Source: Psammoneis japonica (Eukaryota). Taken from it: a stretch of DNA of 64,000 nt. This document shows, one piece after another, positions 13,301 to 61,630 of the stretch. Both the position numbers and the translations under genes were made by a program. Location of the stretch: the NCBI GenBank assembly GCA_008632985.1, contig QPGO01000024.1, forward strand, positions 511,848-575,847, given 5' to 3'. Under the pieces are notes generated by a model. It worked only from the letters and a program-made list of their open reading frames with translations, was not told the DNA's origin and searched no databases. The first letter of the stretch is position 1; each line of letters opens with the position of its first letter.

Positions 13301-13370
13301 CAACCCTCGACCCTTTGGAGTGTGCTCAAGGAGTGGCATCTTCGGGAATCTAGACTTCCAGAACAGCATC
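10334..13370 (-). mobile_element. Ty1/Copia (CoDi-like) LTR retrotransposon remnant, internally deleted and 5'-truncated
   Basis: The 882-aa ORF 10608-13256 contains the Copia post-integrase segment GSRVWVREPGSRRSKLHPVPKKGVFLGC...NVRFDE. On the minus strand a polypurine tract AGGGGAGGT directly precedes TGTCAG (LTR start at 10493). The far LTR end (~10334) is tentative. No RT, RNase H or integrase core was seen. Confidence 0.75.
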
Positions 13371-14700
13371 AGAAAGACAACCCCCCCCCTCTCCTTGGTC
13401 TGGGCTGCTCAGATTGGATCACACATGCAGTGCTCATGGGAGGACATTTGGGAAAAGTGCAACAAGGTTGTTTGTGGGCATGATGCAGATGCAAGAAAAT
13501 CCTCACAATGATGACAAGAAGAGGCTGAACTCACTGCGCTGCACACAACAAATGCCAAAAACACCTCACAAAAGATCAAGAGGCTCTTGTGGATTTGTTG
13601 GAAGAGCATGTGACACATGGCACCTCAAGGATGCAAAATTGGGTTGCCATGATTAAACTGAGACCAAAAGCCAGCATCAGAAAGGTGAAGCGCTTCGCAG
13701 CACTCGCGCCATTGCCAGCTGCTTTGGCGGGGCATCACCTTCCAGTGATGCCCATCCCAGCCAGTCATTGTCTCTTTCTGCTGCATTGCCATTGTGCGCT
13801 GGAAGTGTGGGTCAGCCAGCACTGGCATCATTGGCAAAGGAGTGACAGCGCCAAAAATTAGATCAGTTTTTTGCCCCTTTCATCAAATGTTTGCAACACA
13901 TGAAGTGCACAAAAGGATGTGACACACTTCAAGTCACAGCACTTTGACACCCATTGTGATGCAAAGCTTTAAATTGTCATCACAGAATGAATTGGATGCC
14001 ATGCTTGCTCTTGGCTCTGAGCTGGCAACGTCACGGCCTTTGCATTGTTGGGCAGATTCGCTTGTTTGCGCCACTTTTTGGAAAGCTCAGAAGCAAGTGA
14101 AGTGGTCCCAAGACCATCCTTGTGAAAGTCCTTGCAGCTTTACACTCAGCCATTTGTGGCATCCATGTCAACTGCCTCTTGATTGTGGTCTTTGCTTTTG
14201 GCGAGTCAAGCACACTTCTTTCCTTGACCAGCGCTTTTCTTGACATTTTGTCTTCTTTTGGCAGAGTGAGGAGGAAAGTGTCTCCCATGCATGCAGCTCA
14301 CTTTCATCTTGTGTTGAGTTTTTTTGGCACTTTTTTGCCTCTCCTGCAAAGAAAAAAGCAATGGAGCATGAGCACAATGGCACAGACACACCACTGTGAT
14401 CCAAGTCTTTGTGCGATGTTGTGTGTTCTCCAAAACACAGCTTGCTGTGTGCAAACTTTTGATGTGTGTCAGAGCTTTGATGCATGAGAAGAGGAGCACA
14501 AAATTAAAAAATGAGAGTTGGCAGACGGATCGCCTCCATTGCACTCACCTGGGTCGGTTAAAGCTGCCAGTGTTGCCGTGTTGCAAGTGCGGCGAATTTT
14601 TTTCTCCGCAGAAAACGAACACGAGCCATGGCCAAATTCGAGGTTAAAAATTGAGAGGCGACCGGCCACCTTTAATCACGCACCCAAACATTTTTTATAT
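13371..14700. mobile_element. Unclassified degenerate TE-derived block
   Basis: TA/CG-depleted composition that reverts to normal around 14600-14700. Confidence 0.45.
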
Positions 14701-20389: not shown

Positions 20390-20519
20390 GATTGAATCAA
20401 ACTTGCATATGTTACAATATACAAGCGAAGCAACAAACACAGGGAGACGAACATAAGCAACGTGATACGATAGAGGTAAAATGGAAATACGAGTACGGTA
20501 GGTGACAGCACTCCGGAGG

Positions 20520-23050
20520 CGGACGCACGATGCCAGACGAATAAAAGAGCACAACCAGGCCAGCCCGCCCAGCCATGCCCGCCATGCCACACCAGCCACC
20601 CCGCCCCAACGCAATGACCAACAACCACTTCCAACTTCTTTTGTCATGTTTTGGCCATGGCATGTGGACTGCTTTGCTTCGGCAATTACAGCAATTGACC
20701 AGATGCCATTGTCAGAGAAACAAGCTTTCAGGATTGCAGACGATGGGAAAGTCCAGCAAGAAGAAGCGCCAACGACAGGAGGTCAAAAGGGATCTGGAAA
20801 AAGTGCCAACCCCACAACCCTTGACGAACTCCATCCAAAGCAAACAAGAGATGGCATGGGTCAGAAGACCTCATCTTTGGCATCAGATCTCAAATGCCAC
20901 CAAGCAAGGAACCACTGAGTCCACACCAGCTCCGCCACTGTGGAGTCTCCAAGAAGAAGCAAGAAGAGTGTGTCAAGAAGCGTCTCATTGAAAAGGAGAG
21001 AGAATGACAAGAATCATTGCTTGCACTTGATGCCAGAGTAAGATGGCAAACTGTTTGACTCATGCCAAAAGGAATGTCATCAAGCTTTGTCTGGGAGAAT
21101 TTGAGTTGCTTGGCACAGCCAATTTGTGCAAACTTTGATCTGGCGTTTGACGTTTGATGTGTTGCACAAAAACAGGCTGTTCCTCTGTGATGCCATTCAG
21201 GCAGGGGGCATGAAGGTGTCACAAACTCAGGTGTCACAAACTCTCATTAGAAATCCAGAATCTCAACCTGTTGCCATTGGAGTTGCAGCTCTTTTCACAT
21301 CTCCATGGAGCACTTGTCCTGTGTCCTCTTCCAAGCAAAAAGATGGTGGCGAAGACCAAGCCATGTCACATCTCATCAGTTTGGGGCATTCCCATGAGGT
21401 TGCAAAGGCCTTGTGGTTGATGAGGCAACTGAGTTGCAATCTCAAAGAAAGAACTCACCAAACCCTGGAAGAAAACATGAAGCCTCATGTCAAGGATGGA
21501 CTTGTCTGCTCTGTGAGCTGCTCATCAATGCTTGTGAATTGAGCCAAACCATCAAATGCCAAACAGCGCTTGAAACAAGACCCTCTTTGTGGAATGGGCA
21601 AAATGAGTGTCAGTTGGCATTGACATTTGGGCTTGCTGGATTTTTCTTTTGTTGCAGTCTGTCACTCATTGTGAGGTGGTGGAGAACAGCTGTCAAGGGA
21701 CACAATGCGGGCATGCCATGAAGAGTTGTGCTCTTTGAGGAGTGTCTGGCAAGGACTTCCCAACACTGCCTTTGGTGATGCCATTGCCCAGCAGCACTCT
21801 TTGCCCTTTGCTGAACAACTGAACTGCAAACATGAGTGCACAGTGACAGCTGGACAAGAACAAGTGTGGCACAGTTCCACACATCGCATTGTTGCAGCAC
21901 GCAAGGGACACGGTGCATGGCAGCACATTTGAGACAAATGCCAAAGCACACTGCATGAGGAGGAGAAAGAAACACAAAGAAGGAGCTGCAGGCACCCAGC
22001 AAAAGAAGCAAGAGACTCTCTTTGGCAAAAAAGGCAAGGGCGGAACAACAGCCACTGCATGAGCTCCAGTTTGAGTGGCTGCATCAGTGGCATGTTCAAG
22101 GCAAATTGCATGCATTGTTGCATCTGCACTGGCACAAACCAATGAAGCTGCTGTTAAAGTGGTGCCCAGAGCTCAAAAAATGTTCAATTGAAACTCTTGG
22201 TCTGCCACAAAGAGTTGCCAAGAAAACAAAACAAGGGACCATGTTGGATCAGGGAAGTGTGTTGATGCAGCTGCTTTGGTTTGCGAAGATTTGCATGATG
22301 TCATGATTGAGTCATTGGAAGGGCAGATCCAACTTAACATGCAGCCCTGCCCATGCCTTGTGTTCAGCCTGCATGCACAAGGATGGCTGCAATCTGAGTT
22401 GAGGGAGGGGGGATTTGAAGGCCACACTCATCAAGCTGAGAAAGTGGCACGCAACATTTGTTCGCAAGAAACAATCTGTGATGAGAAAAAAGGTGGGTGA
22501 CACAAGAGGATGCAGGTGGACTGGCAAAGAAGGAAAGGAGCAAAACTGTGCCAAATTGGGCATTGTTGAAAGGTGCAATGAAGTGACTGAGGATTCTTGT
22601 GTGCAACGGGATGGACTCTTTTAAATGCTGGCTCCACTTTCTTGTCATGACTCTGTGACAGAACATTGCTTGGCAAGAAGTTGACTTGGATGCATTGACT
22701 GCATTGGCTTCCACTGTTTGTGTTGACAAATCCCAAATTGGAGTTTTGCTTGCTCCACCCAAGCACATGTTTTGTGGTTTTGGCAAAGAACAATGTTCTC
22801 CACTTGCAAGAACATGAGACACAGAGAGAGCTGGTCCTTCTTCGAGAATTCATCTCTGGATGTCCCACGGCAAAGCTCAGAACACCACAACTCAGCAATG
22901 ACAAGGTGCCACCAACCAATGCAATGTTCAATGGGGTGCATCCCTTTCTGCAGCTCCATGTTCTGCTCCAACAAACAGCTGCAAGGTGCGCCTCAGCAGT
23001 GCAGAACGCCACTCTCTGTGGTCGGAACGTGTCCAGAGAAAGAGAGCACC
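20520..23050. mobile_element. Unclassified degenerate TE-derived block
   Basis: About 2.5 kb with very few TA dinucleotides between two normal genes. No recognisable domain. Confidence 0.5.
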
Positions 23051-23461
23051 TGCTACACGTTGACTTGACAGAAGCGAAAGGCGTCGACACGCGAATTCGT
23101 GCAGTCTTGCCGGTGGCACATTGTCAATCTCCGAGCTACATTGCAATCTCTTTCAAATTTTCATGCTGCTGTAACTCAAAACTCCCTGCAACGTCCGTGT
23201 GACGTCAGTCTTGACGATGGCGGCGTTCCAGCTTTCCGCGCGCAAGCTGAGCTTTGCGTTGATGTTGATCGTCGAAGCCCGGAACTAACAAGTTCGCGAT
23301 CAAAGCGACGATGCCTGAGATTCAAAATGCCAGAAGACTGAAGCTGACAGCTGATAGCGATATTAATAACGAGAACCGAGCATCGTCTTGAAAGCTTCCA
23401 TCTGCTCAGACACATCGCCATACTTTTTCTTCGCTCTGAAGTATTTGTCTGGACGCGACAT

Positions 23462-31584: not shown

Positions 31585-32961
31585 CTACTTCACTAGCCCC
31601 CCACGTGCGGCAAGCGCTTCCACTTCTGACTGCAACAAGGTGACACGTTTGTAGCGAGAGTAAGGAGAAATCTGGGGATCAACAATGTAGTCGTAAATCA
31701 CCTTGATCCACGAATGATAATGAGGAATGCCGTCATAAAACTCTGGAGCCATACTTCGGAGATTGGCCAAATTCCTGCAAGACACAAAGGGAAAGTCGTG
31801 GTGTTCATTATGATAGCCCACATTGTATGTGAGCCAATTGAGTGGTCCGTAGTACGAAAACGTCTCTTGTCCGTCGTTCATCACGTAATGCTCAGAGATA
31901 AAGTGGCCCGCCACGGGGTGCAAACCCATACCCAATAGCGTCCCAAAGATCAGGTACAAGAGACCTCGGATTCCATAAAAATACACAATGGTTGCATCAA
32001 AAACGGCGCTGCATCCGTAGTTAATGTACTCCCACTTGGACGGTTTCTTAGGATTAACCACCATGGGGCGAAGAGAGTAGAAGAGCGGCTGCAGTAGACA
32101 CCAAAGAATCTTCCTGGCGGTGGAGTGAAAGAACCACCCCTCAAAATCGGTAGGAACGTCGACGTCTACCTGGTCTTCACCCTGGAATTTATGATGCTCC
32201 ATATGGTATCTCTTGAATGATGCGGAAGCAGGAATTCCCATACTCAGGTTTGCTGTGATGGAAAGAATTCGGTTGATCAAAGGACGCTTGTGACCCATCT
32301 AATCATTGTTGAATATATGAAACGTTAGATACAAAAAAAGATTAAAATCAGAGGCCACTAGACAGCAAACTGACTTACATTGTGAGACAACTCGTGCATT
32401 GCCAGAGTCATCATGTGGTTGACGCTCCCGGACAGGGTGTAGCAACAAAACGCCCATAAATAAAACGGGGCTCCCTGTAAGAGGTGGATAGAGACGATCT
32501 GCAAAACGAGGCTAGCAATCATCTTGTATTTGGTCATGGGATCGTGTCCCATGAGCTTTGTGACCTGTGGGTACGCAGCCATGATTTGCTTCCGCCTGAT
32601 ATGGCATTGTTCGATGAGCAGCAAACATATAGGTGAGGTACGATGCTGTGAACAAGTCAGGTACAAGTTGAAAGAAAATTCCCTGTAACGTCCATATCCA
32701 ACTTTCACGGCGATTATCGTCAATGAGTACTTCACGAAACAAACGATCCCAGTGCGGCGGCAACGCGAACTCAATGACAATCGAATGGTTCGACTCAGAA
32801 AGGTCTCACCTTAGCACATGCGGCTCTTCACCATCATCCCACCGAAAGCCGGAGCCTGCCATCTTTTCCATCCTCTCCTTGGTGAGCTTCGATGGCTCCT
32901 CCATTTGCTGGGCGGAGATCGACTTCAGCGCCGCCTTTGTTCCGTCGCCGCCTTTTCCCAT
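31585..32961 (-). CDS. DES1: Sphingolipid delta(4)-desaturase / C4-hydroxylase
   Basis: MGKGG start, EEPH..RRKQI, and His boxes HELSH, YHMEHH, YHNEHHDFP. Two introns (~32597-32809 and ~32299-32378). Confidence 0.93.
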
Positions 32962-33259
32962 GGTTGGTTCGTGCGCGCCGATCGATTGGATGAGAAGTGT
33001 GTGTACCGGGCGGTAGGTACTGTACCGTACCGTATGCCCCTGGCGCTAGCTGCGCTCACAGCATTGATGAGCATGGAGCTTCGGCCTGCTCGCTTGCGTG
33101 GTTGTTGTTGGTGGCGGCATTCTGTGATCGTTAATCTTGCGTGCATGCCCGCGCGAATTACTATCGCAGCCATACATCATGCTGTACCATTCAGCGCGGT
33201 ACAATGTGACATTCCGATTTGAATACCATATTACCGCTACGGCATGTACATTCAGCAAC

Positions 33260-36200
33260 AACCTTGCTGCCTCTGCTCCTTCCCCTTTGCCCAACATTGA
33301 GCTCTTGCTTCAGGTCCTTCACCCTGTTGATCCTTCTGATGTGCCTGCTGTCTCCCTTGCTCCCGATGTCATTCGTGACATCATCCTCAAGATGCTGCAG
33401 CACCATGAGAAATGCACCCCTGCACTCCTCTCTTTGCCCTTGACTCTTTGACACTCTCTGAAACCAACAAGCACTCTCGCCCCCACCAGAGTCAGTGCAC
33501 TTCATCCAGTCATGCCTGCAAGCTCTGCTCCCGACCTCCTCCCCTTCTGCAGTCAAGTCCTTTCCTTTCTTCTCCAAAAGTGGCATCTGCATCCTTTGCC
33601 CCACTTTGCTGAGCTCCACTTTGCCAGCACTTTGTCTGATTTCCCACATCCTTCCCACTCGCTGACCCCTGTTGTGGACAATCCTTGTGCTCGACACACT
33701 GCACTTTCACAATCCCCACCTGCAACTCCTTTGATGAGAAGGCTCTCGGCATTCTTGCTGGTCCAACCCTGACCCTTTGTGGCTCTTCCCCCTTTCCTGT
33801 CTCCTCTCTCATTGCCACTCCTTGCTTGTTGGCAAGATCTCAAGCCCTGCTGCCAACCCCATCCTGTGATCTTTTTGTGGCTGCTCTGCCTTCCTCAACC
33901 TTGTTGTCATTTGGCCATCCCAGCATCCCAACAACCTTGCCCAGTGACATCACACTGTGTTTCTGCTCTGCAAGTCTTCTGCATCTCTGCATCCTCTGAT
34001 GCTGTCTTGAATGCCCTTCTTGTTTGTGTCGCCAACCCGCCCAATGCTCCGCCTGCTCTGTCTCCCATTCTGGGCACTTCCACCACTGTCATTCCCTCAA
34101 CTCTCTTCTTGGCAAAACAACATGGGTTGTGATCTTTGCTGATTGCCTCAGGCTTCCTTTTCTCAGCCTGGCGTCAATCGCCTCCTCTCCACTCTGATCC
34201 TCCACTCTCCAACTCCCATTTTCTCTGCCCACGATGCTCTCCTGATCAAGCACAAGCTCTTTTTCTTTCCATCCCCATTTGCCATTGCTCTTTCAGATGC
34301 CAACCTGCACAACTGTGCCAGTTTCCCTTCCAACCTCTTCAATCCCACTCCAGACTCTTCTCCCAATGATGGTGCAGCCTTTCCATCCTGTGCCTCTGCT
34401 GCTCTTCAGCTGCCTGTGCCCTCCCGTGACTCCTTCTCTTGCCATGCTCTTGAGCTGCTTGCCCAAGACTGGCCACTCCCCAAGACCCAAGACCCACTCC
34501 TGACATTGGCCCTCCTCCCTTGTTTTGTCCTTCTGCCTGCCTGCTGTTGATCTGCTGAGCCTCCTCCCTCCAAGTGCCCTCATCCTTCTCCCAGTGCATC
34601 CACTCTTCCCATTGAGGTCCCTCCTGATCAAGTGATGCAGTCTGAGTCTAACGACTCTGCTGCTCCTCAGCAGCCTCAATGTGATGTGGAGCTCCTGGAC
34701 ACTCTCAACATCTTTGTTGCTGCTCATTGTCCTGCTCATCTCTCCAACTGGATGCCCCTCTGTGATGCTGCTGTCCTGGCCCTTGCCCCCAACTTTGACT
34801 CTCTCTGCCACATCATTGCCTTGTGGAACCCATCGGCACCCACACCCCACTGACCTGCCCCTTTTGTTCCTGGTCTCCTTTGTCCACAGATTCATCTTCT
34901 CTCCCTGCTGCTGTGCAAAGTCACCTTTGCCAGGAGCATTCCCATTTCTCCCTTTTACAAGCACCTGCTGATTTTTTAATGCTGCTGGTTTGCATGTCTG
35001 CAGACATTGCAATCACAGCCAACACACCCACCTTTCTCCTGCACACCTCAACAATCACCTGCAAAATGAGCACTTTGCTCCCCACAGAACCCTCAATGTC
35101 AACATTGTTGCCTCTTCCCTTTGCAATGTTGGTGACTGGCACTCCTCTCTTTAATGGCTCTGCTCTCTTGTGCCTGCACCCCCTCCCTTCTGAGCCTCCT
35201 CCCACTGCAAACTCTCCTCTTCTGTCCACAAGGAACTCTGTGCCGCCCTTCATCATGTGCTTTGATGGGTCCTTGCCACTTGTCAGCCCTTTTCTGAACC
35301 TGCTCATCTCACACCTCAATGGCAATGCAATTCTGTGCCCTTTTGCAAGCTGCTTCTGCTCTTCAAGGCTCTCATCCTTGCCCCCGTTCCCCAGTGCTCC
35401 AAATTTGGCCCTGCCACAGCCTCTTGTCTGGCTCTCTTTTGCCGTGGATGCATCTGTCAGCTCTGCAAAGATGCCTGCTCCTTCCCATCATGCTCCTCTT
35501 CTTCTGGCTCCTCTCCCAACTTCTCTGCTTCCACCTGCTGTCACTGCACCAAAGTCTGTGCTGACAAGGATGACTTTCACTCAGCCTGTTCCAAACTCAC
35601 CTGCACACTCCCTGTTGCCACCGTTGCTCCTCAGCGCCTCCCTGAGATCCTCAAGCTCTGCCCTCCTTGCCTTCATCCCTCCCAACATGCCTGATGCTCC
35701 CTCTGCTTGCTCAGCCTCTTCTCTTAAAAATGAGCCCATTGAGCTTTCTGCCGATGCTCTTCTTTCTGCTCTTTTCAAGTGCAAACCCAGCACTGCTGCT
35801 GGCGTGTTTGGTGACTCCACCAATCTTCTCAAGTCCTGTGTTCTCTGCTCCACCAAAACTCCCACTGGCAACTCCCACTGCCCCTGTTTGCCTCCCTTTT
35901 GAGAACTCCTCCTCCTTCTCCTTCATGGCTCTGTCCCTCCTTCTGTCCTCCCCTTGCTTGCCTCCAATCACTTTGTTGCCACTCACAAGGACCCTGATGA
36001 CCTTGACAAGCTTTGCCCCGCAGGCATTGGCATGGCCCTTTGCCACACAACTGCTGGCTCTGTCATTGTGACTCTTTTTGTTTCTGACTTTACCAAATGC
36101 TTTTTCCCTGATGGTCAATTTGGAGTTGGTGTCAAAGGTGGTCTTGGCTGCATTGTTCACTCCACTCATGCCAAACATTGAATGACATCTTTCCACTGCT

Positions 36201-38340
36201 GACCCTGCCAAAGCTCTTCTGCTCCTCAATCTTGTCAACATGTTCAACAAAGTCTCCCGTGATGCTTGCTGTCACCTTCTTGCCTCCATCAAGGCCTTTC
36301 ATCTGCTTTTCCCATTCTTTGATCTCGTGTGTCAGTGCTCCAATGACTGCTGGTGCCATCACTCCAACTCTGCTTGGCCCCCTTTGTTCAAGAAGAAGGC
36401 TTCGCCCAAGGCTGCCCCCTTCTTGGCCTGTCTTTGCTGAACTGGTCCTTTCCCTTGTTCTCTGCCCACTTGACAAAGAACTCCTTGAGTGCATTCCTGG
36501 TTGCTCTTCCACCTCTGTTTGCTCTCACATCAATGATGCACACACCTTTCTCTCTCATTGTGCTCTTCCATGGTCCCTCAACGCTTCTCTGTGCTGGGTG
36601 CTCCCTGCTGTGGCATCACCCTTGGCCTCCACAAAACCAAGATCCTCACCTCCATCACTGGCATCAGTTCATCCCCACTCTCCCTCCCTCTCAAGCAGGC
36701 CCTCTTTTTGTGCCGCTCTCTCATGTCTCAACCCTGTGCATGACCCTTGTTCCTGCAACTCGGAGCTCACTTCAGGAGTCCACTTCCTTGGCCAGCCCCT
36801 CAACTCCCAAGACTTTGCCAACTGCTTCCTCTCTGCTGCCTCCTCTGTGCTCTCAGACAAAGTTGGCAAGCTCCTCACCGCCTTCACAACAAACAAACCC
36901 AAGCCCAACTCTTCAAGCACTGCTTCACTCCCTCCTCCACTCACCTGCTTGGCACCAGTTTCCACCACAACTTTGACCCTGGCGACCCTCCTGATCCCTT
37001 CCTTTGGACCTCTTCCTTTCAAGACTCTCTTCTCACTGCCACTCATTGACTCCTTTGCTGCGCTGTCTCCAGTGCTGATCCTCTCCCAAATCATTCCCTT
37101 GCCACTGCTTTCCTCCCTGCTTTGCTTGGCGGGCTTTGGCCTCCGAGACCCAGCAGCTGCTTCCATCCCTTTCTTCCTGGTTGCTCTCCTCTGCTCACTC
37201 CACTTTGCATTTCATGGAGTCCAACTGCCATCTGGCAACACCATTGCTCTCCCTCACTGTTTCAGGCTGTTTTGGTCCTCCTGGAACAACCCCCACTTGA
37301 CCTTGCACCTCCACAAGATCTTCTGCTCCTGTGCCCCCACTCTTGCCTCCACTTCCACCCTTGCTGCTTCTTCCCTGGCTGCTCTTGTCAAATCTGCTGC
37401 TCTTCCTGGCCTGGCACACCATCTCCATCACAAGCACCAGCAGCAAATTGCTGCCTCTGCCCTTGCCAATGCTCCCCCTGATGTGCAAGTCTCCCTGTCT
37501 TCCCTGCTGTCTCCACTCACCAGCCTTCCTCTGCGCTCCCTTTCCATCACTTCCAGAGCTCCCACCATGCCTCTGATGCTTGCACCATTGCCACCCAACA
37601 CAAAAACTCCACCTCCCTGTCCTTCCTCCCTCTCTTGTTGGCACACCCTGTGGTGGTCTCTCAACCCTCAACACTTGTGACAATCATGCCTTCTCTTGCC
37701 ATGGTGCTCCTCCTGGTTTGCCTGCTCTCTCTTCTCCCTTTTTTGCCAAGGCACACCATGTGAGTGCAAGATTGAAATTCCATGGACCCTCTGCTTCCTC
37801 TTCTGACAGATCCCTTGTTGTTGCTTTGCTCAAAATGACAGCATCTGCCTCCTCCCTGTTGCAATTGATCATTTTGGTGGTCTTGGTTTTTCATGGATTC
37901 CTCTTTGGCTCTTTGCTCTCCTCCACCTGCTCTCAGCCCAAGCCCCCTTGGTCCTCCTCTTCTGACCTGCAACACTCCAATGCCTTCTGCTCAGCCTTCC
38001 TCTGTGCCTTGGCATCTCTCTCTGCCCTTTTTCTTTTGTCTGCCAATTTTGCTTGGGACCAAATTTCCAGTGACTGCTTTGGCAGCACCCCTCATGCTGC
38101 CTCTCCCTCCAGTGGGCCATTCAAACACTTGGCCACAACCTCATTCATCACCCATCTCTGCATGCCCTCCACTTCACCTCCTTTCTTCCCTGCTCCTGCA
38201 TCCCCCACTCCCTCCGCCAAATGCCCTGCATCCTGCATTCTGTGCCCTTTCTACAGCCACTGTCACAACTGCAACTGCTTCTGTGCCTCCTTCTGCTGTC
38301 ACCATCCACTCTCCAAGGGCTCTTTAACTCTGCATTTAGT
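33260..38340 (+). mobile_element. Degenerate, near full-length CRE-clade-like non-LTR retrotransposon
   Basis: RT motifs AAGVFGDSTNLL (~35795), HKDPDDLDKLCP.GIG (~35985), QFGVGVKGG, LLNLVNMFNKVSRD, QEEGFAQGCPL (~36390), HIND for YIDD (~36526) and GVHFLGQPL. GFGLRDP follows. The C-terminal WDQISSDCFGSTPHAASP is homologous to the end of the element at 1-2359. Confidence 0.85.
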
Positions 38341-39920
38341 TTAAAAGGAAATGTTGACTGCTGTCACCAAAACAGTGAAACCAGTGGAAAACAATGTGAA
38401 CCCACAGCAGCTCAAATTGAAAACAAGAAATCAGTGAAGTGCCACCACACCTCATCATTCCCCATCAAACTGCCAGGCCAAAATGATGTGAGAGACATCA
38501 AAGAGATGATGTGGTGCCCCACTTTATTTCATCTTGCAAGACAAAGACAGGGGACATCATGAACTTTTCAGCAACAAGCAGCAGTGGCAGAGTGATTTGT
38601 GCTGTGCTGAGAAAAGAGCACAAGAGCAGCAAAAGGGAACAAGAGGTGCACACCCCCAGCCCCCCTCAGAGCAACAACTGCACCACTTTGAAGAGAGAAG
38701 AGGTTTCAGCCTGCAGCAGCTGCAACCACATGTGCACAAACAGCAATGACTCATTTGCAAAAGAGAAGAGAATTGTGACCCTGGTCAAAAAGCTCAGTCA
38801 CTGTGGGAAGTGCCAGCAGGCCATCTCTGGCCCAAGCTGCTGTCATGTTAGGCAGCATGAAAATGCTCCTCTGCAGAGACTGCAAAGAGCCACCCAAGGA
38901 AAGCTTGGCTGAAATGAGCCCAATGATGTTCAAGCCACATTCAGCCAAAAAGTCCAACCCTCATTTTTGATGTGAACTCTTCCTTTCTTCACAAAAAAAA
39001 AACATTGCACTGCAACATTTGCACTCTTTGTGCCACATTGTGCTGCAGTCTCTGACCGGCACTCTGGTTGACATGCAGATTGTGATGACAATGAGGCAGA
39101 AGGACAAAAAGAGTGACAGGTGGTTGTCTCCCCCCCAGGGATTTTTGAGGTCAAGCTGCACATGGCATGGAGCAGCATCAAAAGTGCCAAGGAGCAGCTC
39201 AACATGTTGTCAGAAGCCACTGTGTTCTCAGAAGTCATGGGGCTTTGCTTGCAGCCATCAAATGACATGGCAGAGCCACAGGCACTTGTTGAGAGGCTAG
39301 AGAACAATGGCAAGGTGTGAGCCCCCCTGCAATGTGGGTGTGCTCCAGAGCCCTGGGTGGAGTGCCATGTGCTGACATTGGGCCCACAAAATTTTGCATT
39401 TGTTGACAAGCTCCACAGCACAATTGCGCAAGGCAGCACAATCTTCTGAGCACTCAAAGCAAACTCTTTCTGGCATGCTCAGCCACACTCTTCTTCAGAC
39501 ATTTAAAGATGCAACCAACTCACTTTTGTTCTTGAAAATGTCCAAAACAAACTGTTGCTGACTTCACAAAAAGCAGGTTGTTTGAAACAGCATTGAATGA
39601 GAGCACACCCAGAGATGAGCATGTGATTTTTGCATGGCTGGCAAACAATCAAAGATGGTTTCTGTCTCAGCCCAGCAATGCAAGGCCCAACCTCTGGAGC
39701 TGGAGTGCCCCACCTGTGTGCAAAAGCCAGGACAGGGAGGGTGGAGGTTCAGCCAAGTGGGGCAAAGCACCAAGCCAGGAGAGAATTTTGAAACACAAAA
39801 AAATTGTCAGGATTTGAGGGAGAGCAAGGCAGGGTTTAGGATGAGAGTGCAGCAAATCAACATGCAAGAGAGAGGACAAGAAGGACAGCATGCAGTTTTG
39901 TCCTGTGAGATCACATGTTT
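38341..39920. mobile_element. Unclassified degenerate TE-derived block
   Basis: Purine-rich and TA/CG-depleted. No assignable domain. Confidence 0.45.
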
Positions 39921-42444
39921 GTTGCTTGAGTCAACCCACCTGTCCCCCCCAGTGACCATGCCTCTGAGGATCTCATTGACACAACAGCAGCACCCATGAT
40001 GTCAATGACAGCAGGCAGCAGTCTTGTGCCTGGCTTTGGCCAGCGCTGTTGTGGCTGCCTGCAGCATCTGTGAAGAGCTTGAACAAACATGTGGCTGGCA
40101 GCTGCTGCCTCAGCCACTTCCTTGTTGTGCTTTGCACCAGCCACATGTTGCACTTGATGGATGATCAGCTGTGCTGGTTGACTTGTTCAAAAAAGTGGAG
40201 AGAGAAAGAGGAGAGAGGCTTCTCTCCCAGCTCCAAAGCCAAACAAACATCAACTTGAACGGCACCAAGTCTGTCCACCCCACAGCACATCAGATCTTCT
40301 AACAGCAAAAACAGCCTCAACCAAACACACACACACACACACACCTTCGCATCTTTTCAAAGAGGGAAGGGGGGGGGGGGGGGGCACAAAAAGTGAGAGA
40401 GAGAGAGAGCAAGATGAGTTGTTCAAATCAACCCACCTGTGTCCTCCCTGCAGCGGCCATGCCTCAGATCTTTTTGGCACAGCAGCACCTGCCATGTCAA
40501 CAACAGCAGCCAGCTGCTGAAGCCACCACAAAAGTGTTGCTCCTGTCTTTGGCTGGTGCTGCTGTGCCTGCTGCTGTCTGCGTCTTGCAGCTGGACAGGC
40601 ACTTTGTTGCTGTCTGGTTGCAAGCAGGGTTGCCAACACAGCCACTCTTGAAGACAACAGTGATCACAGTTGAAGAATGTGCATCCAATCCACATTGACC
40701 CACACACATTGGAAACCATCCAAGAGCACCCAGTGCCAGCCTGCCACCTCAAAAGACAAACTTGCCAAGCTTTTCATGAAGTGCAAACAAAGAGTCAACC
40801 TCCTTCCACACCAACGTGAAACTCTTGCTCATCTGCAAAAATGAGATGACTTGTTGTTGCACAGAAAAGCAAGAATGGCTTTCCACAATCAACTTGAGAA
40901 CATTGCTCTGTGTGTTTTTGACACCCATCTGAGCAATCTGAGCAAATGTCAAAGCCATGCTGCACCAAGCATGGATTCAAAATCTTGCCCGCAAAACTGG
41001 ATTGCCACGCATGAAGGCAACCTCTCCCCAGTGGAGTGCAAGTGCTTGAAATGTCAACTTGAGAGATCAGGGAAACCCCATTTCCCATCTTCTGCTTGCC
41101 CTGAACATTCGCAACCCCCCCACTGCTGTGGCCCCAATCACATTTGCCAGTGGCAGCCTCTTCTGTGGCCTGGGCATGTGGTGGGCAGATGACAAGCTCC
41201 AACGAGCCACACGGAAACAATGGCTGCAGCTTGAGAGCTCTTTTGACCTGACCTCAAGCAAGAACCAACCCAAATGCTTGCACCACCAAACTGCCTCATC
41301 ATCACATTCTCCAATGCCAAGGCCTGCTGTCCCAATGTGCTTGCCACCAAGGCACTTTGAAAATCTCTGCCCACCTCCAAAGCAATGAAGCTCTCTGTCA
41401 AAACATGCCAATGAATGCTCTCATTGAGGCCCTCTAAATTGTCATGTGCAACAACATCTTTGGGGCCCTGCCTTTGGCAACACTGTCTGGCATCATTGCA
41501 ATGGAAGAACCACCATGGGCACACCACCCACCCACCCCAATGCAATGTTGTGCTGTGCCATGCGCAAAAACGTGCTTCTGGAGGAGTCAGCTCCAACCTT
41601 GTTGCTCACCACAAGCAATTCATTGACAACATCTTTGGCACTCAAAACACCACCAACCCTTCCACCAACCCTCCTCTTGGAAGCCTTTGTCTCAAGACTG
41701 AATGACTTTGAGAGATGAGCTGGGTCGCCAGCCCCAGACCCCACTTCATGGACTTCATGGACCTCATGGACCTCACCATGTCCCTGCAAATGTCCCTGCA
41801 AAGCTCAAGAATTCACACAACACCCTCTGCAAACAGAGCCATGAACCTGCACCTCTGCATCCTGTCACACTCTGCATCTCAACAGCCCTCCAAAGTTTCA
41901 TCCTGCTGGGATGCAAACAGTGAGCACCTGCACATCCCATCACATTCAGCACATCCACCTGGAGTGCTCACTGGCCCAATTGTGGGCATGCCTTTTTGCT
42001 TCAAAAATCTTTGCTCCAACCCAGCCAACTCAAAAGCAAAAACAAAACTGCTCTGCCTCTGACCGCAAGCTCAAGAACTCAAGCCCAGCAAGCCACAACC
42101 ACTCTCTTCCAAAAAGCACACAACCGGCAATGTGACAAGAGTGGAAAAGCTCCAGTCAAACCTTGTCTTCCTGTGCATCCTGTGCCACCACTTGAATGAC
42201 CTGTGCCATTGGAGCAAACTTCAGAAGCTGTGGAAAGGAACAACGGCCAACCCTCCCTGTTCACAACCCCTTTTAAACCTCTGCAACCACACATGACAAT
42301 GCACTGGACTCAACTGCATGATTGTCTGTTGCAGCCACACTTGCCACTTGTGTGACCTTGGAAACCTTCACTCATGCCACAAACTCCACACCTCCCACAT
42401 GCCCCCCCAGCTGTGTTCTGTTAGATTGCAAACAGGGAGGCCAC

Positions 42445-42485
42445 TGAGAGAGAGAGAGTTGTTTGAGAGAGAGAGAGAGTTGTTG

Positions 42486-42537
<52 letters not shown>
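42445..42537. repeat. (GA)n microsatellite at the 3' end of a PLE copy (similar tracts at ~42638-42659, 42922-43009, 45358-45409)
   Basis: Directly visible GA dinucleotide runs. Confidence 0.95.
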
Positions 42538-42540
<3 letters not shown>

Positions 42541-42977
42541 GGACTGTCCAAACAAGCAGCTCCGCCTCAGCCACTTGCACTGTTTGTTGGTCACATTTGA
42601 TGGAAAATTGGCTTTGCCAATTTTGTTTGTTTGTTGGAGAGAGAGAGAGAGAGAGAGAGCACAGCATGGCACAAACCAACCTGAAAAATCAACTTTTTAA
42701 CAACACAACAACCTCAACTGTGAAGCAACAACAACAGCCAGAGCCACCATTGACAAAGCCACCACAAAAGCCTCACTCCTGACTTTGGCCAATGTTGTTG
42801 TTGCTGCTGCTGTTTGCTGAACAGTTGGGCGAAGATCCAACCAAGAAGCTCTGGCTGCCCTGGCCACTTTCTGTCCACTTCTTTGTCTCATGTTTGACAG
42901 AATGTTGTGTTTGTTCATTCAAGAGAGAGAGAGAAAGAGAGATTTGGAGAGAAAACAAATTTGATGATCATTCATTT

Positions 42978-43010
<33 letters not shown>

Positions 43011-43885
43011 TCAACTGGAAACTTTGCATCTGTCCTCTGCCCATCTGGCATCTTTTTGACACAACAGCTTTTGGCTCACATCAACAACATCAGCCACTGG
43101 CTGCTGATGAAGCCACTGTGAAAATCTCCTCCTGACTTCAGCCAACCCTGTTGTGCCTTGCTGCATCTGCAGTTTGGAAAAGATCTGAGCAGCAGCGGCT
43201 CTGCTTTGGCTGCTCAATTCTGCATTGGTCACATTTGGTGGTCACTTGTTTCTTCAAGAGAGAGATGGACAGACACTCAAATCAAGTGTCTGTTGGTCCT
43301 CCCCTCAACCACAAAACCACCTTAAATTTTTTTAATCTTTCCATTGTGATTGACCAAGCTTCGTGTGCTTCATGTGATGCTCTGCAAAAAGGAAATGAAT
43401 CTGTGTTTGTGTGCGCCACCTCACTCAGCTGACCCGCCTGAAGTGCTCGCTGGCATTGTTGCAGGCGTGCCAGTTCAACTCAAAAATCTTTGCTCTGATC
43501 CTCACAATGTGCAAGGAGCCAAGATGAAGCTGCTGCACAAAACTGCTTGCAAGCTTGCGGACATCAATCCAACACACTGAAACCAATTTTCCACAATCAG
43601 CATGGCCAGAGCAGCGCCCCACTCCAACCCAATCTTTCTCCACATGCCCTTCCATCCAAATGACCCACACCTTCAAGCAAACTTCAGAAAATTTGGAAAG
43701 GCACTGTGTCCCACCCCCTTCCACTCACAACCACGCTCTCACCTTGCAACTGTGCAGGACAACACATTGGCCTGGACTGCATCTGAAGTTGCTCACGCAA
43801 CCTCAGGAACCTGCTGTTGCACTGCAAGCTTTGCGTCTCTGCTTCGTCCTGCCAGATTGCAGACAGAGAGGCCGCTGCATCAGCT

Positions 43886-43953
43886 CGTTTGTTCGTTCGT
43901 TCGTTCGTTCGTTTGTTTGCTTGTTTGTTTGTTTGTTTGTTTGTCTGTCTGTT
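43886..43953. repeat. (TTCG)n/(TTTG)n/(TCTG)n tetranucleotide microsatellite
   Basis: Directly visible. Confidence 0.95.
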
Positions 43954-43957
43954 TGAG

Positions 43958-43992
43958 AGCTGATGAAGCCACCGCGAAAGTCCCACTCCTGA
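43958..43992 (+). ncRNA. Putative minimal type I hammerhead ribozyme motif (PLE-associated)
   Basis: CTGATGA-A-GC(CACC)GC-GAA-AGT(CCC)ACT-C gives the core boxes, a 2-bp stem II, a 3-bp stem III and a CUC cleavage triplet. Degenerate copies at ~40514, ~42750, 43104 and 45568. Confidence 0.55.
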
Positions 43993-46601
43993 ATTTGGCC
44001 AACACGTTGTTGTGCCTGCCACTCATCAAACAGTTGGACAAATGTCCAAACTGGTCTGCCTCAGTCACTTGCGTTGTTTGTTTGTCACATTTGACGGAAA
44101 ATTGGCTCACCCAATTCTGGTTGTTTGTTCGTTTGAGAGAGTGACCAACCCATGACCGACTGGAACTCATTGCCGGCACACCGGCAAGGTTGTTTTCTTT
44201 CACATTGATCTTTGAATCCACCTGTCTGTCCCAAGCTCCAGAAGGTTGCTTGCCACTGATGACCACACTTCAAGAGCTCCCTGGACCTGAAACAAAAACT
44301 TGTCAAAATGAAGATGCCACCAAATTGCCTCGCCCTGCTCACATCTGATGCCGAGGCCCACTGCTCAACACACCTGCCAACAAAGCATTTTGATTTTGAT
44401 TGCATCCCATCTTTGATGTCATGAAACAACTGCAACAATGCACCGACAGATGCTCTCATCAAAGCCCTCCAAATTGTGATGGAAAATGAGGTGTTGACAT
44501 TTGGAGACACCGCCTGGCACCAGCACAATGGAGCCACCATGGGCACACCACCCGTCCCTCCACACACTGCATTGTGCTGCACACTCCACAAAGACATGCT
44601 CTTGGAGGAGTTTGGCTCCCAGTTGTTTTGCTGCAAACATTTGTTGACAACATCTTTGGCACCTGGCACATCACAGACACCGCCACAGACACCACCACCT
44701 GGAAAGCATTCACCTCCAGGCTTGACAACTTTAACATTGCCTGGATCATGAGTGCCCGAAGCTGCCAAGTTAACTTTGTGGACCTCACAATCTCGCTCCA
44801 AGGCTCCCACCATTGTGCCACCCTCCATGAAGAAGAGGTGGACTTGTGTTTGCATGCTCCACCCAGCTCAGCTCATTTGCCTGGAGCACTCACTGGCCCA
44901 ATCATGGGTGTGCTCTTTCGCTGTAAAAATCTTTGCTCTGACACTGCCGACACAAAAGCAAAAATGAGACAGCTCTGCCTCCAACCCCAAGCTTGAGGTT
45001 GCAAGCCCAGCAAACTGCAGCCACTCTTCTGAAAGGTGTGTGATCTCATCTTTGGAAATGCAGCCAGAGCAGCTCAAGAAACCCAGTCGAATCCCATCTT
45101 CCTGTGCATCCCTTGTCACCCAAATGATCTGCCATTGAGTGAACCACAGCAACTGTGGAAAGGCACAATGGCCACCCCTCCCTGCTCACAGCCCCTCTCA
45201 AACCTTCAAAATCATGCTTGACAATGCACCAGCCTTGACCGCATGACTGTCTGTTGCAGCCACTTGCACAACCTTGGAAACCTTCTTTCCTGCTGCAAAC
45301 TTGCATCGTCCATGCCCCCCAGTTTCATCTTGTCAGATTGCAAATGGGGTGGCTCCTGAGAGAGAGAGAGAGCTCACTCACTCAAGAGAGAGAGAGAGAG
45401 AGAGAGAGATGATGATGGCAACTTTGAACTGAGTCACTCAAATCAACTCATCTGTCCTCCTTTGGAACTTTTTAATGCAGCAACTCCCACCATGTGCTCT
45501 GCCTCAGCTGCTTGCATTGTTCCATGTTGTTTGCAGCTCCTGCCATGTGAGCAACAGCAGCTGACCCCTGATGAAGCCACCATGAAAGTCTTGTTCTCCT
45601 GACTTCAACCAATGTTGTTGTGCCTGCTGTTCACTGAAACAGCTGGACAATTGTCTGATTGAGCAGCTCCACCTCAGCTGCTGGCATCATTTGTTTGTCA
45701 CATTTGATGGAGAGAGCGACCAACCCACGACCAAAACTCACTGCTGGCACCTCATTGCCGGCACACCGGCAATGAGTTTTTGTGACCATTTCGTTTCACA
45801 TTGATCCTCAAATCCACCTGTCTGTTCTCCCTGCTGCAATGTCCACACCTTGGATCTTTTCAACACAAGAGTTTCTCAGCCACCTCGCCACATCAACAAC
45901 AGCATCAGCTTCGGCCAACAATGTTGTTGTGCCTGCCATCAGCTTGACAGCCAGACAAATGTCCAAAAAAGCAGCTTCTGCCTTGGCTGCTCCTTGTTTT
46001 TTGTCAGTCATGTCAGAGTTTGACAGAAAATTGGCTGTGAAGAGTTTTTCATTCGTTCATTCGAGAGAGGAGTGGCCAACCTGCGACCGAAAACCATTGC
46101 CGGCGCACTGGCGACACATGGCTTGTTGCTCCACAGTGTGTTTGGAAGCATGTGTTTCAGAACTGCAGAAAGGACAATGCCTGCTTTTTTTCATCAATCT
46201 CATGGTTTGCTGTCAACTTCGGCTGACTCAACAAGTTCATCTTCTCTGTCGCTGTTGGTTAGGCAGGTGGAAACTACCTCGTTGTGCGTGTACGTTTGTC
46301 CGCACCAGCCGTTTCTGTTTCCCCAGCATCTCCAAAATTTCTCATCTCCAGTGTGCTAGCTATGTGAGTGCCGAAAACACCCCTTCGCTTTCCCGCCCGA
46401 CCGTGTCACAGTACATATTCCACGTGAGTTCTACGCCGACTTCAAGAGCAGTTGTAGCATCACGTCTTTCGTCTTTCGAATTGATTTGTCGACTAATCAC
46501 ATCTCACATACACCAGGACGGTGACAAAGAAGAGTATTTTCGGCATTGTCGACGCAAGCAATCCTACCCTTGTGCTTCAATACTGCCTTCCGACAACCAA
46601 A

Positions 46602-51479: not shown

Positions 51480-52820
51480 GCTTTCGCACGGTGTCCAGCG
51501 CATGCTTGCGCACAAAACTCTGTGAGTGTTTCTCTGTGAATGCTTCCCATTGTTGACGAACACAACAAGCAAAAGACAGGGTGTGTGTGTGTTCTCATCA
51601 TCATTTTGGAGTGACTGTGGCCAATTTGCTGTTGATGGCTCCTCATCACTGCAGCAGGAGAGTCTCAGTGGCGGCGGATCACTTTGCTGCTGGCTCGCTC
51701 TGCTGGCTGGTGTGCCGTGACCAGCCAGTGCCAGGGCCGCTCAAGCAAACAACCAACGATGCTGGTGACAGCCCACACAAAACTTCCAACAGAGAAGCAA
51801 CTTTTTAAAAGGGGCTCTCAGAGTTGCTTGGTCAATGGCGCTCTCAGAGGGAGCAGTCAGACGCACAAAAAGCACGGCTGCAAGCACAGCATGGCACAAT
51901 GTGACGGTGCTGCACAGAGTGTGGTGCACCACTGTGCTGAAAAGATGCAGCGCACCAAGAGTTGATCTGTTAACAAGGAGCAGAAAAAGAAACCACTTTT
52001 GCTCATCCCTCTTGTGGCACAGAAGTGACAGCATGGTGGCTGCACTTGCGGGGAACTGAACTTTGTCAAACCTTGCAATGGAAAAGAAGAAAGCTCTGTT
52101 GTGTCAAATCCCAGGGATGCAGCAGTTCAAAATGTTGATTGAAATGGAGACATTTTCATGGCACAGCAGAGGAGCAAGTTTTGACAATGGGTTGCACAAG
52201 CAAGTGCCAGTCTTTGTTTGCCGTGCAGAAAACTGCAGAGGAGGTGGCAACACAGATCAGTTCACTCCCAACATGAACAATGAAATGTCTTGTTTTGTCG
52301 CCCCCCCCCGTGCTTCTTCTTTGCTGCAACATTGGTTTCCCACATGCACTGTCTTGAAAGGTTCCATGCTGCAGCTTCTGCTCTCCAGGCAGCATCTTGA
52401 GGTTGAAAGGTTCTGCATCAACATTTGCATGCCACTGAATCTCAATGTGTGGCTTTCAAACCTTTAGAAACTTGCAACTGTGGATGAGGGGCACTGTCAA
52501 AGGGAGGGACGTGAACGTTCATGCTCCCAGACAGATTTTGTTGACAATTGTCAAGGATGACTTGATGATGCCCGTGCAGTGTTTGACCGATGGTGGGGAG
52601 GAGATGCACTCCACATTCCACCTGTCCCGTTCCCGAGTTTTTCATTCTCCAGTGACAGGTGCACTTCGAGAGAGCATTGGCCTGAACACACATGCATGCA
52701 GACGAATGAGACCACAACCATTTTGTTTCAGGTTGAAATCAAGCATGAGCAAGCACCTTTCGACGGGAATCGGAACATTTCATTTTAGACTCTCCAACCT
52801 TGTGCCAGGCTCAATACAAT
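51480..52820. mobile_element. TpA-depleted block (TE- or gene-fragment-derived)
   Basis: Composition matches the other eroded blocks. No assignable domain. Confidence 0.45.
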
Positions 52821-60619: not shown

Positions 60620-61430
60620 AAGTTGTCAACAATGAGGTGCACACAGGCACACAGGCGCACCGAGCTGCTGGTCCTCCCCCGCCTTCTCTCTCTTCCTCTT
60701 CTTGTGCACTCTTGTTTTTGTTGTCTGTTTTTTTCTCCTCTTCTTGCTGCTCTTTTGCTCTTCCTGCTTCTTCTGTTGTGCACAGCACCTCTTCTTGAGC
60801 CTTTTCTCCAGTGTGCCAGCCTGGCCAGGCTTTTTGTTGCTTGCAGCGACGCCCAGCGCACCAGTTTCTCACTCTCATCTGCTGGCTGGCCAACCCCCCC
60901 CTCTGCTGGCAGCCAAGAAAAAAGGCATTGCACATTGCTGCACACTGCAATGTCTTTGAAAGAGGAGTGAGGTGGACCTCTTCCCTTGCTCTCCATGGCT
61001 TGGCACCTGCTGCACGAGCACGCGGTGTTGAACAACAAAGCATTCAGAACACAGATGCAGTGCTGTGTGCTCAATGAAGAACACACCAGTGTTCTGATTT
61101 TGCTTTGAGCCCCAGCAACAGGAGCAGCCACCAGCAGGGCCCTCTTGCTCTGTGCTGACTCCACAAAAGGCTTCTTCTCCTGCCTGGCTCTTGCAGTTTC
61201 TTGTGCCCCTCCATTTTGCGGCCCTTTTGCAAGAAGAGGAGAGCATCAAACAAGAAAAGAAAGCAAACAAAAAGTGGGGCAGGCAGAGAGAAGGGTGTGT
61301 GTGCTCTGTGTGGAGGCGGGGCTTGGCATCATGCCTGGCACCACCAGACCCAGAGGAAGAGCCATGACATGCTGGGTTGGTGGGCCAGATCTTGTGCTGA
61401 CAGAATGGGGCTGATCTGTGAATTTTTGTC
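60620..61430. mobile_element. TpA-free degenerate block, unclassified
   Basis: Composition only. Confidence 0.4.
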
Positions 61431-61630
61431 ATCTTTCAGGTGCTCCAGGTGATGAGGACAAACAATTCTCTGGGTTCAGTTGAAACGTGTGTGGTGACAA
61501 GTTCTGGCTCCAGCAGTGGGATCACCAGCTGGGCTTTTGTGTGTTTGTCGTTGTGTTCATGGCGGAGGTTGCTTCACCGCGCAAGAGACAAACGCACATC
61601 CAGCAGGGCCCTGCCTGCTTGCTTGCAATG

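Follow-up and report, generated by a model that had tools for sequence, protein, structure and literature searches.

Introduction

In Neurospora and other fungi, repeat-induced point mutation (RIP) introduces CpA-to-TpA transitions into repeated DNA, creating TpA dinucleotides and stop codons, and methylated transposons decay by deamination of 5-methylcytosine, which turns CpG into TpG or CpA. In animals, editing of retroelements by ADAR and APOBEC enzymes is a deaminase hypermutation of one strand during the life cycle of the element. The main text of a preprint on Bigelowiella natans (Mettrop et al., 10.64898/2026.01.13.699255) describes a different signature: two integrated viral regions acquired 231 single-nucleotide mutations in mutation-accumulation lines, of which 230 were A-to-G or T-to-C changes, all on TpA, and in these regions, which consist of giant-virus and virophage DNA, the TpA mutation rate was about 1000 times background and episodic between lines. 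The same source reports that TpA-poor coding sequences of B. natans are enriched for reverse transcriptase (RT) and DDE domains, proposes an ADAT2-like deaminase for the signature and, in its Discussion, also describes RIP. Here, we analyze a stretch of 64,000 nt from Psammoneis japonica (hereafter the window; assembly GCA_008632985.1, contig QPGO01000024.1, positions 511,848 to 575,847 of the forward strand), in which decayed retroelements have lost conserved tyrosine and aspartate codons, among them codons between motif A and motif C of a reverse transcriptase without long terminal repeats (non-LTR) at positions 36226–36540.

We consider it likely that these motif changes are a by-product of a TpA editor acting on DNA and directed to repeat domains, combined with CpG decay. 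As in B. natans, the changes are A:T-to-G:C transitions at TpA that give TpG and CpA, and they stay within blocks of mobile or foreign DNA that are low in TpA and high in TpG plus CpA; here, however, they are historical footprints, whereas the preprint reports de novo mutations, of which none were observed in the present material. The targets also differ, being retrotransposon remnants in P. japonica, with TpA at 0.06 of expectation compared with 0.45 in the nucleocytoplasmic large DNA virus region of B. natans. Moreover, the blocks have also lost CpG and spare TpA that is flanked as YTAR (Y, pyrimidine; R, purine), unlike the B. natans signature as described in the main text of the preprint, where the words CpG, context, flanking, tyrosine and diatom do not occur, and the long uninterrupted open reading frames (ORFs) of P. 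japonica are unlike the gene structure of B. natans. With RIP the blocks share dinucleotide-specific transitions in DNA, on both strands, within sharply bounded tracts of repeated or foreign sequence, but the direction is opposite, because TpA, TAA and TAG are lost and not gained, so that the blocks do not classify as RIP. A literature search on diatoms and other stramenopiles returned no account of TpA erosion, and the B. natans preprint was the only analogue found.

Results

TpA is nearly erased from seven sharply bounded blocks

Dinucleotide counts resolved the window into a mosaic in which seven sharply bounded TpA-poor blocks (1–2152, 6480–7560, 8480–14480, 20480–23060, 33248–46259, 51480–52620 and 60900–63480; 28,549 bp in total) alternate with ordinary genic DNA. 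Summed over the blocks, TpA occurred 95 times against 1709 expected from base composition and CpG 436 times against 1763, while TpG and CpA stood at about 1.5–2 times expectation. By contrast, the DNA between the blocks (32,575 bp analyzed) contained 1383 TpA against 2200 expected (about 0.63) and 1880 CpG against 1879. Loss of TpA was near-complete in every block (0.02–0.13 of expectation), whereas CpG ranged from 0.15 of expectation in the block 33248–46259 up to 0.40–0.41 in the blocks over LINE1 and over the Copia-like remnant described below. The block edges were sharp to tens of bases, and the ORFs between blocks had normal TpA and CpG, showing that erosion was restricted to the blocks.

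The biggest block (33248–46259; 26 TpA against 786 expected, 115 CpG against 791) contains the non-LTR element LINE2, two copies of a second element and unassigned DNA, and a TpA-free gap of 2161 bp within it (36091–38252) encloses the motif A to motif C stretch. The block over LINE1 (1–2152) retained 2 TpA of 111 expected and 48 CpG of 121, and that over the Copia-like remnant (8480–14480) retained 35 TpA of 383 and 149 CpG of 365, a weaker CpG decay.

LINE1 and LINE2 are related non-LTR retrotransposons

A whole-database HMMER search with the core of LINE1 (window positions 2–340) found 86 proteins at E ≤ 1e-3, the best at 3e-16 with 45% identity. Seventy of these 86 relatives have a normal Tyr content (at least 1.5%), and the Pfam domain RVT_1 was present in all eight long relatives tested. 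Comparison of the relatives with the window by tblastn gave 266 high-scoring segment pairs (HSPs), all on the plus strand and located on the two LINEs or on a short fragment near 6500, and a family profile made from 17 long relatives matched both elements collinearly, with E-values down to 5e-46. LINE2 (35266–37893, plus strand; profile positions 75–1039) is the decayed ORF of a non-LTR retrotransposon, which shifts frame at least five times and contains in-frame TGA codons. LINE1 (2–2260, plus strand; profile positions 410–1135, in four frames) is the 3′ portion of a related element, truncated by the start of the window. The family consensus runs LLLLD..NMFN.VSR (motif A), EGFAQGCPLSP (motif B) and SY.DDT (motif C), and ends with a CCHC-like motif, C.Cg..LDPyGDHFFSC, followed by kRPADVG and AIDVT, a C-terminal arrangement reminiscent of the restriction-like endonuclease of R2/CRE elements, in which a CCHC motif precedes a PD-(D/E)xK-type nuclease motif. 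Judged by these sequence matches, LINE1 and LINE2 are real, related reverse transcriptase elements of the non-LTR type.

The two elements were nearly invisible to standard searches. A Pfam scan of all 169 block-overlapping ORFs of at least 90 amino acids gave no RT match at E ≤ 0.01; when 19 ORFs were rescanned at E ≤ 10, LINE2 and the Penelope-like element (PLE)-like copies described below went unrecognized, and the sole RT match was RVT_1 on LINE1 (E = 0.029). Neither the LINE1 core nor the PLE-like ORF matched an RT in a phmmer search against solved structures. LINE1 and LINE2 had no DNA-level HSP in common, being too diverged, and collinear HSPs were taken in place of a noisy all-frame tblastn comparison between them.

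TpA reappeared from position 2153, about 100 bases before the end of the LINE1 ORF, an edge that rests on three TpA. Just outside the TpA-free part, TAC at 2153 still encodes a conserved Tyr, which all five relatives share. The block edge therefore differs from the end of the element. Two further traces of the family lie on the plus strand at edges of eroded blocks, namely a fragment at 8386–8526 that matches the C-terminal end of the profile (E = 0.0057) and three tblastn HSPs at about 6500–7000.

Motifs are altered at presumed TpA- and CpG-derived positions

A sequence-only reading of this locus had proposed that four codon strings, HIND, CVDN, FVDN and FLGC, are RT motifs altered by the loss of TA and CG. 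All four strings are present exactly where they were placed. In LINE2, the profile matches the stretch 36226–36540 (plus strand) in two frames (36192–36407 and 36430–36888). The motif A catalytic Asp, D in 33 of 34 relatives, has become Asn at 36228–36230, where AAT follows CTC (CpG to CpA); two Tyr codons of the palm (36330–36356), Y in 37 of 44 and 28 of 38 relatives, have become Cys (TGT at 36330 and TGC at 36354); and motif C at 36526–36537 reads CAC ATC AAT GAT (HIND) against the consensus S-Y-x-D-D-T. When 70 database relatives were aligned by tblastn, the corresponding LINE2 columns were Y in 9 of 20 (next I, 5), D in 14 of 20 at the codon that follows C, and D in 18 of 20. Motif C of LINE1 at 284–295 (plus strand) is TGT GTT GAC AAC (CVDN), with AAC following GAC, at columns where the relatives have Y in 10 of 31 (then I 4, L 4, F 3), D in 26 of 30 and D in 21 of 30.

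The third string, FVDN, lies at 44640–44651 (TTT GTT GAC AAC) in the PLE-like copy B (44330–45400, plus strand). Copy A (41300–42460, plus strand) is 66–72% identical to it and has TTC ATT GAC AAC at 41619–41630. By the resemblance of their motifs, these are putative Penelope-like elements, a group defined by a PLE-type RT with a GIY-YIG nuclease. In a protein atlas they lead to clusters with HTH_animal (26%, 14%) and RVT_1 (11%) at 0.93–0.95, and they had no Pfam match even at E ≤ 10 and no PDB match. A (GA)n microsatellite ends both copies (42440–42500 and 45360–45410). The fourth string, FLGC (TTC CTT GGT TGT, 12218–12207), is on the minus strand in an open frame over the Copia-like integrase remnant (10611–13292), and it sits within the integrase SH3-like domain (Pfam SH3_retrovirus, 8e-8). 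This domain was the only one seen in the remnant, with no rve or RVT_2 match even at E ≤ 10, and a word-index database search with the frame gave 0 matches. Thus, the assignment to RT holds for HIND and CVDN, which belong to motif C of the LINEs, but not for FLGC. Since no intact relatives were obtained for the PLE-like and Copia-like sites, their ancestral states are presumed, from the motifs typical of the families, to be FVDD and FLGY.

Conserved residues change as TpA and CpG erosion predicts

We compiled a strict list of window codons that were covered by at least eight relatives, lay in the best-supported frame and had at least half of the relatives agreeing on a residue. It comprised 536 codons, of which 375 were identical to the consensus and 161 were mismatches. 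None of the eight conserved Tyr was kept (5 Cys, 3 His), and only 9 of 35 Arg were (10 Cys, 6 His, 2 Gln, 2 stop, 3 Lys and 3 other). Asp was kept at 15 of 26 sites (6 Asn, 5 other) and Glu at 3 of 7 (3 Lys, 1 Gln). As controls, Cys was kept in 9/9, His in 11/13, Trp in 6/7, Phe in 24/30 and Pro in 68/80. The excess of Tyr-to-His/Cys changes over the relatives, set beforehand as the test on which the sequence-only reading should stand or fall, was clear (8/8 in the window versus 15/282 cells in the relatives; Fisher p = 4e-10). Changes of Arg to Cys, His, Gln, Trp or stop were likewise in excess (20/35 versus 86/720 cells; p = 9e-10), as were Asp-to-Asn (6/26 versus 41/572; p = 0.012) and Glu-to-Lys (3/7 versus 5/190; p = 0.0014). 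All six Asp-to-Asn codons were preceded by C, for which the baseline is 582/1310.

Reverting a single TG or CA to TA or CG rescued 56 of the 161 mismatches (56/355 opportunities, 15.8%), about four times the rate of other transitions (29/695, 4.2%); transversions rescued 44 of 2544 (1.7%), and 32 mismatches required two or more changes. Among the 22 rescues of the TA type, 14 were from TG and 8 from CA. Taken together, the fates of the residues and the rescue rates bear out the replacements expected from combined TpA and CpG erosion.

In the true reading frames, Tyr was absent from all 488 codons of LINE1 and all 822 codons of LINE2, whereas the relatives, with Tyr-poor ones excluded, keep Tyr at the conserved Tyr columns in 226 of 308 cells. 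The Tyr-poor relatives, 13 of the 86, have 12 His, 11 Cys and 3 Tyr in 35 cells at these columns; from their sequences, they look like eroded copies of the LINE family that have already been called as proteins in public assemblies.

Erosion struck both strands, probably of integrated DNA

A relaxed list of Tyr sites (Y in at least 40% of at least five relatives) comprised 20 sites within the blocks, with the codon at 2153 as the 21st. Within the blocks, 9 had become His, 7 Cys and 4 other residues, one of these an overlapping-frame artefact, and none was Tyr. His and Cys were mixed in both elements (3 His and 2 Cys in LINE1; 6 His and 5 Cys in LINE2), and the LINE1 codon at 284, which with Y in 10/31 falls below this cut-off, adds one more Cys. 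ADAR-like editing of sense RNA predicts A-to-G changes on the coding strand only, at odds with the 9 His (T-to-C) found beside 7 Cys (A-to-G).

A global alignment of PLE-like copies A and B contained 35 positions at which TG in one copy stood opposite CA in the other. These split 18:17 by direction and were interleaved along the sequence. Such a position is expected where an ancestral TA or CG was hit independently in the two copies, on one strand in the first and on the other in the second. Among repeat copies in the blocks, CA-versus-TG accounted for 73 of 160 double differences, compared with 9 for the next class and 2–7 for the other double transitions, in a tally that counts some overlapping tandem-repeat alignments twice. 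The mixture of His and Cys within each LINE and the 18:17 split in the PLE-like pair argue against editing of sense RNA alone, as had been supposed when Tyr was first seen to have become His in one LINE and Cys in the other, and they agree with the accompanying claim that both strands were hit. The strand argument by itself is compatible with editing of RNA plus complementary DNA (cDNA), against which the single unbroken eroded block that spans several elements argues instead.

The flanks of surviving TpA are far from random

The 95 TpA that survive in the blocks are scattered rather than clustered, and their flanking bases depart strongly from randomness. Compared per kb with normal DNA, which served as a proxy for the original composition of the blocks (the contrast was judged too large to be due to error in this proxy), TTAA was the best-preserved context (28 in blocks and 61 in normal DNA; ratio 0.52; for example at 34977, 35152, 35725, 38325, 42274, 43323, 44732 and 45473), followed by CTAA/TTAG (18 and 106; 0.19) and CTAG (9 and 89; 0.115). 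Mixed contexts stood at 0.03–0.08 and GTAC at 0.038 (4 and 120), while ATAC/GTAT (1 and 232; 0.005) and ATAT (0 and 98; 0) were virtually eliminated. In the most eroded block, 21 of the 26 survivors were YTAR. This order of contexts suggests a strand-symmetric process with a target wider than TpA, either R-T-A or T-A-Y, in which a TpA vulnerable on both strands would be erased first, one vulnerable on a single strand next, and one vulnerable on neither strand last. Inferred YTAY sites had yielded CA and TG equally (7 versus 7), which favors neither R-T-A nor T-A-Y as the target on each strand. Because Tyr codons are TAY, they never fall into the resistant YTAR class. The dependence on flanks, with YTAR and especially TTAA spared, is new and is not mentioned in the main text of the B. 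natans preprint.

Erosion removes stop codons and opens spurious frames

Per kb and strand, TAA and TAG occurred 1.66 and 0.88 times in the blocks compared with 8.5 and 9.7 times in normal DNA, whereas TGA occurred 22.3 times compared with 18.3. The TpA process removes TAA and TAG and is unable to create them, so that it damages codons by missense alone. The only source of new stops is the CGA-to-TGA change, which accounts for the two Arg-to-stop cases. As a result of the loss of TAA and TAG, long frames are open in all six phases of the eroded blocks: the window has 268 ORFs of at least 90 amino acids, of which 169 overlap blocks. The block ORFs are invisible to Pfam, and gene callers are likely to emit them as false proteins; profile-based annotation of transposons, in turn, will undercount eroded elements.

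Other features of the window

ORFs between the blocks encode clear Pfam domains (GILT, NUDIX, DHHC, TauE, NOC3p, desaturase, PP2C, PfkB and AP mu). In a search limited to longer proteins, the best named match of the AP-2 mu fragment was from an oomycete (66%). On these genic flanks, the contigs of run X2 omit 80 bases (32298–32379) and 214 bases (32594–32809), both with CT..AC ends. These gaps look like two minus-strand introns (GT..AG) of a gene that includes the desaturase ORF at 31588–32298. The X2 contigs have no cover over 33004–46343 and are uninformative on expression there.

Two remnants of an FTO-like dioxygenase lie on the plus strand at 21105–21539 and 21959–22303 (Pfam FTO_NTD, 4e-6; FTO_CTD, 9e-10), within the block 20480–23060. 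This eroded remnant implies that a host-type gene copy was struck too, unless it was carried by a mobile element. Direct repeats of 200–500 bp, 83–92% identical, occupy 61429–63658 in an eroded block, with shorter tandem-like units at 61930–62488; copies of both kinds show CA/TG discordances.

Discussion

The direction and context of the changes, their action on both strands, their timing after the divergence of two copies and the sharp limits of the blocks are all recorded in the window. As an explanation, we propose that two context-specific transition processes act on both strands of integrated repeat-block DNA. TpA would be converted to TpG or CpA almost to completion, and CpG would be converted to TpG or CpA in part. 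Every Tyr codon becomes Cys or His because TAT and TAC both contain TpA. Through CpG loss, CGN codons of Arg would turn into Cys, Trp, stop, His or Gln codons, and Asp or Glu codons preceded by a codon with C at its third position would turn into Asn or Lys codons; hence a DD motif written as GAC-GAY or NNC-GAY loses one Asp. The TpA step may be the work of an enzyme that deaminates adenine in DNA, giving inosine that is read as G, and that would be directed to silenced, CpG-methylated repeat chromatin, by analogy with the proposal for B. natans. The CpG step is probably ordinary deamination of 5-methylcytosine, whose marks the blocks bear in the turnover of CpG to TpG and CpA, in the conversion of Arg to Cys, His, Gln or stop, and in the restriction of Asp-to-Asn to positions after C. 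Such decay explains only the CpG half of the erosion, and the loss of CpG was slower and more variable than that of TpA (0.15–0.41 of expectation against 0.02–0.13). The sequence-only reading also held that the process inactivates elements by destroying Tyr and Asp codons. Both are indeed lost, but this account was too narrow, since the loss of 26 of 35 conserved Arg, frameshifts and TGA stops have contributed, and Asp-to-Asn affected only 6 of 26 sites, all after C. The erosion may have inactivated elements that were still live, or it may have acted on copies that had died before.

Several observations weigh against this explanation. Ancestral states were taken from relatives that are only 27–53% identical (most 33–45%) and are not the elements' own ancestors, and the Fisher tests treat the cells of these relatives as independent, which they are not. 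At the first position of motif C, Tyr is the plurality and not the majority residue in the relatives of both LINE1 and LINE2. The GAC AAC shared by the two PLE-like copies may have been inherited and not have arisen independently. Because LINE1 and LINE2 cannot be aligned as DNA, the only direct demonstration of change after insertion comes from the PLE-like pair and from other repeats. Finally, contigs of run X1, from the only DNA sample with the locus, which belongs to a single study and is probably the assembly's own, differed from the big block at 18 listed single-contig positions, of which 9 were of the CpG type, only 1 of the TpA type and 8 other, giving no evidence of TpA mutation at present. 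This excess of CpG-type differences is weak evidence that CpG decay continued after TpA was exhausted, and these differences may represent allelic CpG decay that is ongoing in the block 33248–46259.

An alternative, which we regard as very unlikely, is that the changes were made during retrotransposition, by ADAR- or ADAT-like editing of element RNA and perhaps of first-strand cDNA, and that the mutated copies were then inserted. All four elements are retroelements, editing of RNA and cDNA together could in principle yield both TG and CA, and the blocks share with ADAR a preference for a 5′ U/T neighbor, ADAR favoring a 5′ U according to the Discussion of the preprint (10.64898/2026.01.13.699255). 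However, TG and CA outcomes are interleaved within single elements, and both strands changed after the copies had diverged, unlike the one-strand signatures of ADAR and APOBEC. Furthermore, the erosion runs continuously through a 13-kb block containing three elements and unassigned DNA, the FTO-like gene remnant in another block is eroded too, and the block edge at 2153 falls within the LINE1 ORF. In B. natans, as described in the preprint, integrated sequence of DNA viruses acquires the signature de novo (10.64898/2026.01.13.699255), again at odds with an origin in retrotransposition.

If the process acts on DNA, as we favor, it could still target thymine in place of adenine, for example if thymine were oxidized to 5-hydroxymethyluracil or given a base-J-like modification, and mispairing or faulty repair then led to T-to-C. 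We consider this improbable, if somewhat less so than editing during retrotransposition. Thymine hydroxylation in dinoflagellates prefers TpA, and since T-to-C on one strand is A-to-G on the other, the two chemistries leave an identical footprint in the sequence. Nothing in the window, however, favors thymine chemistry specifically, and the only published proposal for such a signature, in the main text of the preprint, is adenine deamination (10.64898/2026.01.13.699255). Last, we give next to no credence to the view that old methylated repeats simply decayed neutrally, or that these element families are natively poor in TA, with no dedicated TpA process. CpG decay of methylated repeats is commonplace, and TpA is mildly low everywhere, even in the normal parts of the window. 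Nevertheless, the rescue rates, the Tyr of the relatives, the Fisher tests and the block counts already contradict this account: TpA falls to a small fraction of expectation within edges sharp to tens of bases, TG/CA reversions rescue far more often than other transitions, TpA survival depends strongly on flanks, and Tyr is retained at the corresponding columns in relatives from the family.

An editor of TpA in DNA that is directed to repeat domains, together with CpG decay, thus remains the explanation we prefer for P. japonica. More tentatively, and with doubt prevailing, stramenopile algae and the rhizarian Bigelowiella might share such a dedicated, chromatin-directed editor, as an ancient defense common to the stramenopiles, alveolates and rhizarians (SAR) and a chemical mirror of RIP. 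It would act on either strand of mobile DNA that has been silenced, and its target would be wider than TpA, with RTAY edited fastest and YTAR, especially TTAA, nearly spared. Acting alongside the decay of CpG, it would inactivate transposons through missense changes alone, with every Tyr and most Arg gone, and by erasing TAA and TAG it would leave the genome full of long false ORFs. The order in which contexts are lost, RTAY first and TTAA last, provides a concrete motif for testing candidate deaminases, and the conversion of conserved Tyr to His or Cys and of Arg to Cys, His or Gln provides a protein-level read-out of the erosion. If our preferred explanation holds, a TpA-erasing signature published so far for one chlorarachniophyte would shape the transposons of a distant algal lineage too.

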